From Vezdaea acicularis (Eukaryota): 64,000 nt of DNA. The stretch is from positions 1 through 64,000 of the forward strand of contig JAPEUI010000092.1 in the NCBI GenBank assembly GCA_026025075.1, read 5' to 3'. Shown here piece by piece: positions 50,258 to 56,729 of the stretch. Position numbers and translations under genes: made by a program. The notes under the pieces were generated by a model that searched no databases, was not told the origin of the DNA, and saw only the letters and a program-made list of their open reading frames with translations. Within the stretch, counting starts at the first letter, position 1. The number at the start of each line of letters is the position of its first letter.

Positions 50258-52971
50258 ATGGACCAATTCCAGGTCTGGGAGGGTCAAATCGTACCGCGCA
50301 CCTTCAAGGGCGGTTTCGTCTTCCTTTCCTATCTTGTTAGCTATGTTGGATCCTGGACGACCCTAGAACTATTAGACAAGAGGACGGCGGTACGGGGCTC
50401 GTACAATTGGTATGCCACGACACCTCTTCATTTAGGCCTCACTGCCATACACGAATATGTGTTGACTGTATATTTTATAGGTACATCCTGGTGGGCTCGG
50501 CGATATCGATGGGGGGAGTTGCTATTTGGTGCATGCACTACATAGGAAACCTTTCGATCATCCTCGGAAATGGGGACGCCCAAATACAACTAACGTACAA
50601 TGCTGGCATCACGACTGCCTCATTTTTCGTTCCCGTTTTGGTCCTTCTTGCAGCGTTCTTCATAATCGGCTCGAACGAAAAGGTGCGGCAGATACGTGTA
50701 ATACTTGGGGGAGCTCTTGCCGGCCTGGCTGTATGTTCCATGCACTATGTGGGACAAGCGGCCATTTCGAATTATGACTGCGTATACAACTTCCAATACG
50801 TTGTCGGTTCAGCGATCATTGCAGTTCTTGCGTCTGTCATCGCATTTTGGGTGTTCTTTGTCATGAGGGCCGCGTGGAAGAATTCGTGGTGGAAACGAGC
50901 TCTGTGTGCTAATGTGCTCGCTGGAGCAGTATCTGGGATGCACTGGCTGGCATCGGTGGGCACACAGTATAGGTACAGGCATCACCAGAGCATAATGATA
51001 GGGACAGCAAGGCGTACGACAATCATCTTCGTCATAGTCCTGGTACGTCTTCAGAGAATCCATTCTAGGAGTTTTGAGGTCTAATACTATCTTTATCTAG
51101 TCCATATTTGGGTGCATAGTGCTGATTGCACTCGCCATGCTGGCACAACAACGACGGAGACGGTCGGCAAATCGAGCTCAGCAGGTTGTATTAGCCTGCG
51201 CGACGTTTGACTCTCAGGGGCGATTGCTCGTGACTTCGGAGGGGCTTTTACCAAGTCAAAAGATTACCAATTCTTATGTTGAGCGGGTATGTCGTAGAAG
51301 CCCTTTCCCCCAAGGTCTTCGTCCATTGCGAGGATATCTAACGTAATCTTTGCTTTGTAGTCTTTTGATGATATATTCACCATTTCGCATCCAGTCTTCC
51401 TCTGGATATTTCGTACTACTCGGAACTGGCGGGGAATTGCAGAGCTCATACCTGGGATGCGAAGTCACCTCCAAACCACTGCAGCAAAGAGTGGCTCTGG
51501 ATCAACTACACAAAAGTCTACACCAGATCCATCCAATGAGGATGAGGGCGTGGAGGATTATTCAGTGGTCTTCCGAGAGCTGTTCTGCGTTGCTGCATCA
51601 GAACTAGCAGAGCAGATCAATGAACCCCTTGAGAATGTTGGAGTACTATATGATGAGATCATCAGCACAGGCACCATCAGCAAGTATGGGCAGGATCAGA
51701 AAAGGGGTTTGTTTGGTTATGGAGAGGACCTTGAACGTGCGGGACCAATTCCATTTGTGTTCGGACGAGGCCAGGTTCTGTTCGTAGTTCGACGTACCAA
51801 CAAGAGCGAAGCAGCTCGGCTTCAAGCCTCAGGCTTCCGCTTTGCTGGTGCACAGAATGTGGTCGATATTCTAGCACGAAGTATGCAAGTCCAGCGGGAT
51901 GAGCTAGCCGCACACATCGAGAGCATGCAGCGATACTCGAAAGGCGACCATATACTCAACCCAGGAGTGCACATGGCTTGTTTCGCCATCCGCGCGTCTG
52001 TCCGTGGCGGCTTCGACGTCCTGGTCCGTCGCGACGCCAAAAACCAACTCCCTACGATGCAACTCCCAATCGCCTCTCTCGAGCCATGGCACCGAGAGTT
52101 CCTCTCTCAAATGGAAAACTGGACGGTCTTCAACTGCTTAAATTGGTTACGCTCGAAAACGACGTTCAGCTCTATGGCGGAACAGACATTTGCAACCCAA
52201 GTCTTTGATACCATCGTTGCCCTGGCCGACGAAATTGGGGATCCCTTCTTCCACGACGCTCTATTGACTACAAACCCCTACATCCTAGCCCCCTGCCGTG
52301 GCTTCGGCGACTATCCCAAACCAGGCCGCGCCTCCCTCCTCGCCTTCCGCATCATCGCCCCAATCCACTCCCGCGCACCACACGGCCGCCTCACCTACTC
52401 CCCCCTCTCTTTCTTCCGCACCCAGCAGCACGTCTACAGGAACATGCCCGACCACGACGTCTTTGCGCGCAAGATTCACCGCGAGTTCGCCCCGATCGTC
52501 GAGCCCAAGAAGAGCCTGTCCTACGCGACCGAGCGCGTTCGCAGCCCCAGCTTGACCGCCACCGTCAGTACCCTTCCCCCCAGCAGCCCCACCAGCTTGG
52601 CCTTCCTTGTCCCCACGCTCCATCACCCGCCCCGCGACGGCCAGAAACGGCCAGATCTCAAGGCTCACAAATCCTGGTTCGGCCTCTCTCCGACCAACTC
52701 TTTCGTCTCGGAGAAGAAAGAGCGGAAAATCGTATCGCCCCCGCTCTCCCATACCGACGCGAGCAGCGAGAAGCACCTCATGGACCATGCGGGTAACCCC
52801 TTCGGCGGCATCATGGTCAGTCAGGAGGTCAGTGTCGATGTGAGGGAGGTGGGCAAGGAGAACGAGGTCGAGCTCTCGGCGATGGGCACGTTTGGGAGTG
52901 CGGTATGCGAGATGGATGATCCCGAGACGTTTGTCGATTTGCTCTTCGAGGCCGCTGTTGAAGGGAGGTGA
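50258..52971 (+). CDS. MHYT-domain integral membrane protein (putative sensor) with long cytoplasmic C-terminus
   Basis: SYLVSYVGSWTTLEL and three MHYT-type repeats (IWCMHYIG, CSMHYVG, SGMHWLA). Introns 50410..50480, 51043..51100, 51287..51360. Confidence 0.88.
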
Positions 52972-53659
52972 TCCCGGCCTTCATCATCATCATCATCGTT
53001 AGGTGGTTTGGAAGCCTCACCTCTTCGTTATTTTGGGTCAGACGCCCTTTTTTTGTTTTTCTTTCGCGGTTTAGCGCTCGCATGGCGTCGGATGGGGACA
53101 GGGTCTGGGTCTACTTTTTTGTTGGTCATTAAATGACTATTTGGTTTCGCTCTGGTATCAACAGAGCCGATGGGAATACCCCGTTTGCATGCAGCCTGGT
53201 TGGCTGGCTGCTGCTTGTATATAGGATGGAATGGAGATGTGAGGATGGTGTAGATAGTGGGGCATAAGGCTCATATCAAAAATATTGGATGTGTGATCAG
53301 TTTATTGCTAGTGTGATGTGGATTATGATGTGATGGACGCCCAGCTCTAATGGGCGGTGTTCATGCAATTGGTACAAGTCATTGGAGGCTTCCTCACGTC
53401 TAGAAGGGTTCTATTTTGAGGTTTTAAGGTGCCGCCAGTGCCAGGTTGTGGGGGTTTTTGCAGAGGATGCTCATGTGGAAAGCGGAAATGGACTTTTTTC
53501 GAGCTTGTGGTGGACAATGGGAGGTGGTTCGGGGATGTTCAGGGGTGGGGAAAGGGCTTTTGAGCCGCTGGATGTTGGTTGGTGATAAGGGCGGGTGACA
53601 GATTGGCATGGTGATACTTGCTTTGGTGTCAAGAGCTGCATTTCAAGTTACACAAAACG

Positions 53660-54185
53660 CACCTCGAAAGGTCGAAAGCTGTTTCGGGAAATATTCTGAT
53701 CTATTGCCATGACTTAGTAATTCGTAGGACTTCAAGAAATCCTCAAGTCTCATCTGTCTGATATGAATTATCATTAATTGCATCTAGGGGATCATTGGCC
53801 ACAAAGAATATGGGTGATGCAAAAGTTACCCGGCCTCCTCACGGTCTTGGATGGGCACGCGGCCCCCGGAAGACGTGAAGAGGTGCTTGCATCAAAGTAG
53901 GAGAACGCCAAGAGCGTACTACCATATCAACAGACACATGTGGAACAAAGAGTCACAGTACAGGTAGTTGGTACTGCGTGAGTAGTCCAATGCACAAATA
54001 TCACAGAAAATCTGTACGCCGGAAGCGAACCCGCGATGCCCACACGAGATTCAAGGAATCCCGGGGCCAAAAGCAGGATTAGAAAGGCGTTCTCATCAAT
54101 TGGTTCGCTCTCGATCTACTCGGGAATGTGCAGAGACAACGGATGCTTCTAGTGAGGAAGCGTATGTACTCCGGCATGGGTATGT
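53660..54185 (-). ncRNA. Candidate structured non-coding RNA of unknown class (possibly a large intron-hosted snoRNA)
   Basis: Dense set of helices favouring the minus strand via G-U pairs (e.g. CCTCTTCACG 53883-53874 / CGTGAGGAGG 53843-53834). No credible ORF. Flanked by splice signals. Confidence 0.4.
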
Positions 54186-54459
54186 TGAGGACCTGGACAA
54201 TAAATGTGAAGAGAAGACAGAGAAAGAAATGTACGGTAGAATTTCAAGCGCTCGCTACGGTGGGCGGGAGGGAGTGGGATGGGAGATTGTCGTGGTCATT
54301 GGTAGAAGGATGCCTAGTGAGGCTTCACGAAATGGGAAATTTTTATGTTTACTATAATCAAAAGCTTCGGTAATCTATTCACCTTAATGCGTTACAGTAA
54401 ACTTCTGATTTGGACCGTTATTGTCCGGAGAGGAACCCTTTGATGTTCATATGGTGGGG

Positions 54460-54474
54460 CGCGTCAGGTCGCGT
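54460..54474. promoter_or_regulatory. Two MCB-like CGCGT cores upstream of pnk1
   Basis: gcgcgtcaggtcgcgtc about 125-140 bp upstream of ATG 54598. Confidence 0.35.
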
Positions 54475-54597
54475 CTCCCCGAGAAATTTGTTCACGTCGT
54501 TGCTCGCACCTTGGGTCGTTCCAATGACTTCGTGAACCCATTCTTGCGAGCTACTATCACAAATAGCACGCTAGATATACGATCATTCACAAGGAGA

Positions 54598-56729
54598 ATG
54601 TCAGGTTTACGATCGAACAGAGGTCAGAAGAGGGGCTCAGAAACGCGAGGTTCCTCAATCTCCCCTCCACCTTCCAAGCGGAAAGTTCCAGGTAGCATGA
54701 CGAGTAAGTTCTTTGAAGACATATACCAATCTCAGCTCCTTTCAGCCTGTTGAACTTGAAGTAGAGGATGCAGTTGCCAGTTTCTTTACGCCAAGTTCGA
54801 AGAAGGAACCGGAGAAGACAACATGGCAAACTCGTCATCAGACGCTGCTCGTGGCTACATATAACCAAGATACCAAAGAAGATAGCCTAGAAAAAAGTGT
54901 ACAGCAGCGAAAAAAGCGGAAAGTTGCTGCGTTTGATCTGGTAACTACTATCCATGGTCACAGTATGTAAAATGGAATGAGCTCTATGTTAATGTCCGAC
55001 TGCAGGATTCCACCCTCATTGCTACAGCAAGTGGGAAACGGTTCTCGAGTGATGTTGGAGACTGGAAATGGTGGCATACAAGTGTACCGGAGACGTTGAA
55101 GTCATTGCTTAGCCAAGGGTACGGCCCATTTCGGCTTGAAGCCCCCCTTTCTCTACCAATGAATGCTAAGGTTGTCTATATGTAGCTACATAATTGTGGT
55201 CATGAGCAACCAAGGAGGGATCAAGCTGGGAGACCCAAAATTCGTTAAACAAGCGGAAAAACGTGTCAATAACTTCAAATCCAAAGTATCAGCCATACTG
55301 AGTCGCCTTGACATGCCAGTTACCCTCTATGCTGCCACAGGACAAGACAACTATCGTAAGCCTTGCACCGGCATGTGGGATGAGATGCTCAAAGATCATG
55401 ATTTACAAAGTGCTGGAAGCATTGACCTTAAGGCCTCATTCTTAGTTGGTGACGCTGCGGGTCGTTTGGCTTATGGTAAGATGCCACAAGATCATTCTTG
55501 CTCGGACAGGTAAGTTTACCTGGTGAAGTCAAGAATTAAAGATAGTCACTCTAATGCCTCTCAAGAAATTTTGCTGCAAACGTCGGGATAGGGTTCCATA
55601 CACCAGAAGAATACTTCGCCAAAGAGTCGCCGAGACCGTTCACTAGAGATTTTAATCCAGATGACTATATTGTTCAAGCTATAAACATCTTAGGTGACAC
55701 TCTAGTCGAGATATCACCATGGATCATTAGCTAATAGTTCTCAGACCCGCCTACCTTCAGCAAGGAGTTGCGTCAGGAGATCGCTCTCTTCTGTGGAAGT
55801 CCTGGCGCTGGCAAATCAACTTTCTACTGGAATTATCTGAAACCGCTGGGATACCAACGCGTCAATCAGGATATTCTGAAAAGTGTAGGTGGCGATCATT
55901 CCAACGGTTAAGGAGGGTTTCAGACAACCAACGCTCTCGGATATTTTCTTAATTCTCATCACTACTTACATTGTATCATGTATCTGGCCATTACTAACAT
56001 GCCCCCCACATCTTAAATTCTTAGGTGAAACCTTTTTAGACCATAGCTGACAATCAATAGCGTAACAAATGTGTCCAAGCTGCGAAGGTATTTTTGAAAG
56101 ACGGTAAATCAGTTGTAGTAGGTAAGCGTTTGATACCGGCCCCTTCTCTGAGCCTTGCACGAATATTGTCTCACGGTGAATGTGGTCTTTGATGCAGACA
56201 ATACGAATGCCGAGCCAGACACACGAGCGATGTGGATACAGTTGGCTCAAGCGCATGCTATCCCAATACGATGCTTCTATTTTACAGCAGACCCGAACCT
56301 TTGCCGTCACAATAATGCTGTACGAGCTCTGAGCGGAGATCTGGTAAGTTCTTAACTTGATTGGAAGCTCTCACTCCTTCAGAGTAATTATAGTAGCTTG
56401 TATCAAGGCAAGTCCTTGCTGAACAAGTGGCGTATGCGACTAACAGTAGATCTTCGATAATATAGATGAACCCAGAGGATCGCACGATCCTTCCGCAGGT
56501 TGCGTTTACGAGCTTCAGGGCACGCTTACGCCCACCTACCAAGGAGGAAGGGTTTCAAGAGATTTTCAAGATTGACTTCAAGGTAAGTTCAGAAATCGCT
56601 ATTCATCGGGCAGCCGTCAAGCTGCGATGCCGGACATATCTCCGAGAAGGATTTGGCTGACAAAGATTACGCTGTCAGTTTGAGGGGAATGATGAGCAGC
56701 GGCTGGCATGGAGCAGGTTCTGGATCTGA
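54598..56729 (+). CDS. pnk1: Bifunctional polynucleotide 5'-kinase/3'-phosphatase
   Basis: HAD motif AAFDLDSTLI, SNQGG, YRKPCTGMW, VGDAAGR, P-loop CGSPGAGKSTF, VVVDNTN. Nine introns: 54704..54764, 54941..55005, 55119..55185, 55510..55565, 55694..55744, 55885..56060, 56122..56197, 56344..56465, 56583..56678. Confidence 0.95.

Follow-up and report, generated by a model that had tools for sequence, protein, structure and literature searches.

Eight new stand-alone structured RNAs, at the time not included in Rfam, have been reported from fungi (Gao, Jones & Rivas 2021, PMC8216456). That report describes Intergenic structure 2 of the Pezizomycotina, for which 223 sequences with 24 covarying base pairs, an average length of 144 nucleotides (nt) and no H box are given, and an RNA called H/ACA small nucleolar RNA (snoRNA) 3 that is 161 nt long. 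It also describes, again for Pezizomycotina, single-hairpin RNAs that carry an H box without the full H/ACA signatures. In this study, we examine a candidate RNA locus in a 64,000-nt stretch of DNA from Vezdaea acicularis (contig JAPEUI010000092.1, positions 1 to 64,000; the whole of this stretch is called the window), which lies between a gene encoding an MHYT domain and a gene that can reasonably be described as pnk1. Our reading, to which we assign a probability of about 0.5, is that a small, stable noncoding RNA of about 165-175 nt is encoded at this locus by its own stand-alone gene, positioned roughly at 54007-54183.

Attention had originally been drawn to the interval 53660-54240 (581 nt), which was proposed to contain a structured RNA of about 0.5 kb, encoded on the minus strand within a spliced host transcript. 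For the present analysis, the minus strand of 53400-54500 was examined and the motifs were located by script.

Conservation and RNA Library Evidence at the Locus

A short island of sequence upstream of pnk1 is conserved, is present in RNA libraries, and is absent from Rfam. A search of sequencing runs matched seven runs from three studies. Four of these (X1-X4) are DNA runs from a moss-metagenome study, which is probably the study that produced the window; they are not independent, and the window may have been derived from one of them. The remaining three are a DNA run of a related organism (X6, organism A) and two biocrust metatranscriptome runs (X5 and X7) made from two samples in a single study (P2). 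Logan contigs from X5, X7, X6, and X3 were aligned to positions 52000-56000 at 80% likeness, and those of the DNA run X3 proved to be near-identical to the window over this range.

One X6 contig of 24,823 nt is syntenic across the entire 52000-56000 region, and its similarity to the window is interrupted by two replaced blocks. Identity is 90.9% over 52000-53235 (113 other letters and 21 gaps) and 91.4% over 54456-55997 (133 other letters and nine gaps). Between these segments, X6 has 636 other letters where the window has the 746 of 53236-53981, and a second replaced block between 54296 and 54456 comprises 161 letters versus the window's 159. The 315 nt from 53982 to 54296, with 19 other letters and two gaps (94.0% identity), are the only portion of the intergenic region that is retained at 80% or more. 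A one-sided binomial comparison of this island with the flanking genes (94.0% versus 90.9-91.4%) gives p 0.04.

Each of the two metatranscriptomes contributes a single contig to the locus. The X5 contig (151 nt, depth 18.7) covers 54030-54180 with two other letters, and the X7 contig (154 nt, depth 5.4) covers 54019-54172 with four. Both match the window from end to end, with no joint and no loose end. The span covered by these contigs coincides with the span that would be closed by two stacked helices, P1 and P2, on the minus strand. No X5 or X7 contig was placed elsewhere in 52000-56000, including 53660-54018, 54181-54296, and pnk1, and for this reason the contigs are not treated as DNA carry-over; such holes prove nothing by themselves, and the hole is not counted as evidence. 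The features on which this reading is built are as follows.

53982-54296, strand not assigned: conserved island between the MHYT-domain gene and pnk1, from the X6 alignment
54019-54180, contigs carry no strand: span with RNA-library contigs from X5 and X7
54007-54183 (ends approximate), minus strand favored: proposed small RNA gene of about 165-175 nt, suggested by the contigs and the predicted fold
54097: C-to-G substitution (plus strand) common to X5, X7, and X6, the only substitution in the island with a listed position

The proposed unit is a single-copy sequence, with no second copy in the 64-kb window and a single X6 contig placed on it at a depth equal to that of its flanks. When metagenomes were scanned for relatives with an 18-base core word, 18 loci were recovered, and in all but one of these the identity is limited to 18-21 bases; the exception has a 34-base match at 85%. 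All 18 were taken as chance matches because they hardly extend beyond the word, and thus no relative suitable for covariation analysis was obtained among them. In comparisons with Rfam 15, nothing reaches a gathering score in the whole window, and searches of 52500-55500 and 53980-54300 at E <=10 return only noise. The best of these matches, to the H/ACA family SNORA84, scores 15-15.6 bits with an E value of 0.78, short of the gathering score of 45.

The island is probably noncoding, to judge from its reading frames. A 38-codon open reading frame (ORF) on the plus strand (ATG at 54036) is not conserved, since the shared C-to-G change converts the TCA at 54096-98 to TGA in X5, X7, and X6. On the minus strand, a 32-codon ORF (ATG at 54177) belongs to no Pfam family, and the change at 54097 replaces its TTG with TTC (Leu to Phe). 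The island also corresponds roughly to a plus-strand frame (53986-54348) that stays open for 121 codons. No ATG precedes 54183 in this frame and no Pfam family matches it, and a search among 1.84 billion representatives produced one weak match (E 7.7e-4) to a 3693-aa protein that was matched in 52 stretches, which we do not regard as a real homolog. The broken 38-codon ORF, the lack of a Pfam family for the 32-codon ORF, and the lack of an ATG, a family, or a real homolog for the long frame are the reasons why the island is treated as noncoding.

Predicted Architecture of the Proposed Small RNA

The strand, exact ends, polymerase, fold, and function of the RNA are what we infer from the features below, whose base-pair probabilities come from folding predictions for the minus strand.

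54170-54177, minus strand: P1 5' strand ATGCCGGA, pairs with 54016-54023
54016-54023, minus strand: P1 3' strand TCCGGCGT, forming seven Watson-Crick pairs and one G-U pair with probabilities of 0.65-0.99
54102-54109, minus strand: P2 5' strand AGCGAACC, pairs with 54024-54031 with probabilities of 0.59-0.77 and stacks on P1
54024-54031, minus strand: P2 3' strand GGTTCGCT, which together with the following bases reads GGTTCGCTTCC
54045-54063, minus strand: hairpin CGGGATTC-CTT-GAATCTCG (54063-56/54052-45), the most stable local element, with probabilities of 0.97-1.0
54145-54161, minus strand: hairpin GCTTC-CTCACTA-GAAGC, present in the minimum free energy (MFE) and centroid structures
54067-54072, minus strand: U-rich TTTTGG between two predicted stems, resembling an Sm site, with C rather than A before it
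54007-54015, minus strand: ACA (54015-54013), GA, and TTTT (54010-54007), directly after P1
54199-54229, minus strand: CT-rich tract (54229-54209) and ATTTATT (54205-54199; AATAAAT on the plus strand) in the conserved flank
54180-54185 and 54162-54167, plus strand: GTATGT donor-like hexamers 18 nt apart (ACATAC on the minus strand)
53660-53981, minus strand: 80-nt hairpin, closing stem, pseudoknot partner, and splice-like signals of the larger structure proposed earlier, all outside the conserved unit

In the mechanism that we favor, the RNA would be transcribed from the minus strand, divergently from pnk1, and from its own conserved flank at 54184-54296. Both the CT-rich tract and the ATTTATT word belong to the island and might serve as a promoter; on the minus strand, the latter precedes 54177 by 22-28 nt. 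The 5' and 3' ends of the transcript are predicted to pair through the stacked 8-bp helices P1 and P2, which would enclose two weaker hairpins and an unpaired U-rich run in addition to the very stable hairpin at 54045-54063. ACAGA and the run of four T's would follow the terminal helix. By analogy with end-paired small nuclear, nucleolar, or RNA polymerase III (Pol III) RNAs, the product could act in trans as a component of a ribonucleoprotein. It would not be a canonical C/D or H/ACA guide.

If the locus is indeed a stand-alone noncoding RNA gene, the minus strand is somewhat favored because the island extends 116 nt past 54180 in X6 and only 37 nt past 54019. The positions of the CT tract and ATTTATT upstream, and of the T4 run downstream, are also consistent with minus-strand transcription. 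Two further words were noted. The P2-associated GGTTCGCTTCC (54031-54021, minus strand), judged by eye, is similar to a Pol III B box, with one mismatch at a conserved A, and a word of this quality is expected by chance about once in such a length. Also, TCTAATCCTG (54067-54085, minus strand) contains a 10-nt match to the reverse complement of a "790 loop" word of bacterial and mitochondrial small-subunit ribosomal RNA (rRNA), which presumably is a coincidence.

Folding Statistics and the Extent of the Structure

The adjacent arrangement of P1 and P2 is not common in random sequence: a stacked pair of this kind occurs in eight of 2000 dinucleotide shuffles, a statistic that was chosen post hoc. 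The original prediction had included these two helices within a much larger set of motifs, and they have proven to bracket precisely the segment for which there is both conservation and RNA contig coverage. All the motifs listed at that time do exist at the coordinates given for them, as a script confirmed for five long-range pairs, the hairpins, and the splice-like words. The pairs 54109-02/54031-24, 53894-87/53822-15, 53929-23/53765-59, and 54094-86/53909-01 are perfectly complementary, and the GTACAT, TACTAAG, and GTGCGT words, along with ACAGAT at 53757, are positioned as described previously. Most helices that can be found by eye in 0.5 kb of intergenic DNA, though, represent no more than chance.

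The larger structure does not stand out in energy. On the minus strand, 53660-54240 folds at -160.8 kcal/mol (z -1.29), a value matched by eight of 100 dinucleotide shuffles; the plus-strand z score is -0.92, with 19 of 100 shuffles doing as well. For 53660-53981 on the minus strand, z is -1.78 and five of 100 shuffles are as good. Sub-elements picked post hoc reach z scores of -2 to -2.9, usually on both strands. Among these is the 80-nt hairpin at 53815-53894, with z -2.75 on the minus strand (three of 200 shuffles) and -2.62 on the plus strand. This near-perfect hairpin sits in the 746-nt block replaced in X6 and has no other copy in the window, and for these reasons it might represent a lineage-specific insertion of an inverted repeat rather than an RNA element.

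Much of what had been proposed for the 3' portion is not supported. Conservation and RNA contigs are confined to the 54019-54296 end of the region, and this evidence spans about 165 nt, not the 400-500 nt once suggested. The X6-replaced block takes in the 80-nt hairpin and closing stem 53929/53759, the splice signals at 53719, 53701, and 53662, the G-ACA-GAT at 53757, and also the 3' partner (53909-01) of the suggested pseudoknot. The spliced host transcript fares no better: no joint was reported in the alignment of either RNA run, and the donor word GTACAT lacks the G at position 5 that is usual for fungal donors. An argument for the minus strand, namely that imperfect pairs are G-U on that strand and A-C on the other, turned out to be uninformative. 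The minus-strand MFE structure of 54007-54183 has five G-U pairs that read A-C on the opposite strand, and seven G-U pairs of the plus-strand MFE structure likewise become A-C when the minus strand is read. There is also some success to report, in that the idea of an RNA outside existing catalogs is in keeping with the RNA-like character of the unit and its lack of an Rfam match; the H/ACA interpretation attached to that idea finds no H box (ANANNA) on the minus strand of 54007-54183.

Weighing the Proposed Small RNA Gene Against Other Explanations

Several points count against a small RNA gene and are the reason why its probability is not set higher. The folding energy of 54007-54183 is not significant relative to shuffles on either strand (MFE -52.8 kcal/mol, z -1.55, 13 of 200 shuffles as good on the minus strand; z -1.44, 17 of 200 on the plus strand), and of the two the plus strand is slightly more stable (-56.6 versus -52.8 kcal/mol). 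The case for the minus strand is a weak one. The contigs are strandless, and G-U counts do not discriminate. All RNA support derives from one study. Contig ends are weak evidence of RNA ends because contigs in these runs are short, the 174,459 records with their 20.3 million letters averaging about 116 nt, and the end of the X5 contig at 54180 is also the start of the second GTATGT hexamer (54180-54185). A TATA-like AAATATCA lies at 53996-54003 on the plus strand, about 25-30 nt before the contig starts. Furthermore, the shared change at 54097 breaks a predicted pair in the weak hairpin 54077-54097, and no known RNA class fits the unit.

Some of these same observations can be assembled into a plus-strand explanation, which we consider unlikely: a short transcript or leader exon that starts near 54019-54030 behind AAATATCA and has its exon end at 54179 before GTATGT, serving as an upstream noncoding exon of pnk1 with a short upstream ORF, or existing as an independent unstable transcript. 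The X5 contig would then end at 54180 as might be anticipated for a de Bruijn contig, which presumably would stop where spliced and unspliced forms diverge, and its start at 54030 is 27-34 nt past the TATA-like element. A branch-like CTTAAT and an acceptor-like TTACAG precede pnk1 at 54383-54397, and folding of the plus strand is as good as that of the minus strand. The absence of any reported joint or loose end, however, means that neither RNA contig is seen to enter a second exon. In addition, the 94% identity of the island persists for 116 nt of what would be intron and for only 37 nt upstream of the supposed start, the upstream ORF is not conserved, and GTATGT is found again at 54162, so the hexamer is simply repeated here. 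Similarity to X6 also begins again at 54456, leaving about 140 nt ahead of the likely pnk1 ATG (54598) and suggesting that pnk1 has a leader of its own there. Still less probable is that the island is conserved cis-regulatory DNA, such as a shared or bidirectional promoter or an enhancer upstream of pnk1, with the RNA contigs being incidental promoter-associated transcripts. Its location 155-470 nt upstream of the first candidate pnk1 ATG (54451) and its unremarkable fold energy would suit such a role. Yet 315 nt retained without interruption at 94%, a level at or above that of the adjacent coding sequence, likely exceeds the needs of a cluster of binding sites, and a depth of 18.7 in X5 would be unlike that of unstable promoter transcripts.

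Two explanations invoke H/ACA RNAs. We regard as quite improbable a noncanonical minus-strand guide RNA of about 170 nt that uses the ACA at 54015-54013. It would account for the ACA, GA, and T run directly after the last helix; an alternative fold drawn by eye, with a lower stem at 54090-86/54020-16 followed by an internal loop and an upper stem, places the top of the loop 15 nt from the ACA; the least poor Rfam match is to an H/ACA family, SNORA84; and the single-hairpin H-box RNAs reported from Pezizomycotina provide a precedent for incomplete signatures (PMC8216456). Against this, ANANNA is absent from the minus-strand sequence of the unit, a hinge of about 40 nt would be required, the lower stem has a pair probability of 0.0, and the fold constrained to contain it is 8.8 kcal/mol worse than the MFE. 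We would be surprised if the RNA proved to be the atypical H/ACA-like species of 400-500 nt envisioned originally, running from 54240 to 53660 and released from an intron at 54234-53701 of a spliced host transcript. Its motifs are real and its 80-nt hairpin has a z score of -2.75, but the whole stretch reaches only -1.29, the 3' two-thirds is not retained at 80% in X6, the hairpin is equally stable on the plus strand (z -2.62), and neither a joint nor an H box was found. An equally slim prospect is a short minus-strand mRNA for a 32-residue peptide, read from the ATG at 54177 to a stop at 54078-54076. This ORF falls within the RNA-covered span and the change at 54097 is missense and not a stop, but no more than about 4 nt would separate the ATG from the point where the RNA appears to end (54180), and the peptide is basic, unremarkable, and without a Pfam family. 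A small RNA gene at 54007-54183 brings together the island, the contigs, and the helices that close the same span, and we retain it as our working interpretation.

Neighboring Genes

The placement of the locus next to pnk1, as initially described, appears to be sound. The downstream gene (plus strand) encodes a PNK3P domain at 55163-55510 (Pfam, E 3.3e-29), and the best ESM Atlas cluster for this fragment is labeled "Pnk1 family", with Ascomycota as its commonest phylum, although this cluster is to be read only as a lead. On the basis of the domain and the cluster, "upstream of pnk1, in an ascomycete" is therefore a reasonable description. The start of pnk1 is ambiguous (54451-54753, plus strand): the ORF runs from an ATG at 54451, and a recognizable basic, Pro-rich N-terminus begins at the ATG at 54598. 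A GTAAGT is found near 54705, after the latter ATG.

The upstream gene, also on the plus strand, encodes an MHYT domain at 50509-51081 (Pfam, E 3.6e-22). According to Pfam, MHYT is a bacterial signaling repeat, and here it is present in what seems to be an ascomycete (50509-52971). The 504-aa region after the domain has no Pfam family and no usable ESM Atlas match. Just past the stop codon of this gene (52971), X6 shows dense deletions of 1-3 nt at 52981-53145, as expected of a 3' untranslated region drifting by indels. A scan for bacterial-type promoters and terminators was not meaningful for this eukaryotic DNA.

Comparison with Known RNA Classes

The unit can be set beside several established classes of small RNAs. 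ARAGORN detects no transfer RNA (tRNA) or transfer-messenger RNA genes in the window, and U1-U6, U3, RNase P/MRP, signal recognition particle (SRP), and telomerase RNAs have no Rfam match even at E <=10. A D box (CTGA) is absent from both strands of 54007-54183. There is likewise no C box (RTGATGA); the sole TGATGA (54098-54093, minus strand) is internal and becomes TCATGA in X5, X7, and X6 through the change at 54097. Likenesses to U1, U2, U5, U6, and U12, and to RNase P CR-I/CR-V, SRP helix 8, and a telomerase template, were considered by eye and were rejected. A tRNA-like 3' half was dismissed on the negative ARAGORN result, and complementarity of 8-10 nt to rRNA-like words is expected by chance. 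Six motifs of the unit, each of 14-15 bases, had no match in a full-text literature search.

H/ACA snoRNAs share with the unit a size of about 170 nt, an ACA just past the last helix, and the possibility of forming hairpins with internal loops. The unit differs in having neither an H box nor a match at gathering score, and its favored fold pairs the ends of the RNA instead of forming two independent hairpins. H/ACA RNAs carry their ACA three nucleotides from the mature 3' end and, in each of two hairpins, a pseudouridylation pocket 14-16 nt from the box. In the unit, the ACA is at 54015-54013 and the contigs stop at 54019 and 54030, and the H/ACA-like alternative would give a spacing of 15 nt to the ACA for its 3' hairpin. 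The Sm-class small nuclear RNAs (snRNAs; U1, U2, U4, and U5) are of comparable size, and the U-rich TTTTGG between stems, followed by a stable hairpin, is reminiscent of them. In contrast to these RNAs, the unit has no Rfam snRNA match at E <=10, carries a C before its U run, and continues past the hairpin in the 3' direction until it pairs with the 5' end of the same molecule.

The closed architecture has some likeness to that of the end-paired Pol III RNAs (Y RNA, vault RNA, and 7SL). The common elements would be a terminal stem that joins the 5' and 3' ends, a TATA-like element some 25 nt upstream, a short 3' tail that ends in T's, and the B-box-like GGTTCGCTTCC. The candidate Pol III signals are ATTTATT at 54205-54199, the word at 54031-54021 with its one mismatch, and no more than a TTTT at 54010-54007. 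The unit departs from this group in that it has only four T's, a mismatched B-box word at chance level, and no Rfam match. No Y or vault RNA is known from an ascomycete. A bolder proposal, which we offer tentatively and consider unlikely, is that a new, so far undescribed family of small RNAs exists in ascomycetes and that the ~170-nt unit is its first recognized member: an end-paired RNA, possibly made by Pol III and similar to Y and vault RNAs in its closed architecture, that acts as the scaffold of a ribonucleoprotein not yet described. The unit is conserved beyond the neighboring proteins and is present in biocrust RNA samples. If the unit does define a family, fungal biology would gain a new ribonucleoprotein component. 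The RNA is probably one more uncatalogued fungal small RNA.

In either case, the locus is a concrete candidate that is conserved, apparently transcribed, and fits none of the definitions tested for C/D, H/ACA, snRNA, RNase P/MRP, SRP, and tRNA. It is an indication that fungal genomes, especially those of uncultivated ascomycetes dwelling on moss and crusts, still contain small RNA genes outside any catalog. The closest parallels are the Pezizomycotina intergenic structures (PMC8216456). The helices of those RNAs are backed by covariation, whereas the fold of our unit is predicted. What the two have in common is that they are stand-alone, intergenic, structured, similar in size, and apparently from ascomycetes, and the unit is unmatched by Rfam 15. 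Judged by description, the locus could be one of these stand-alone RNAs, and a match of this kind to a published orphan structure would add RNA-library evidence for that structure.

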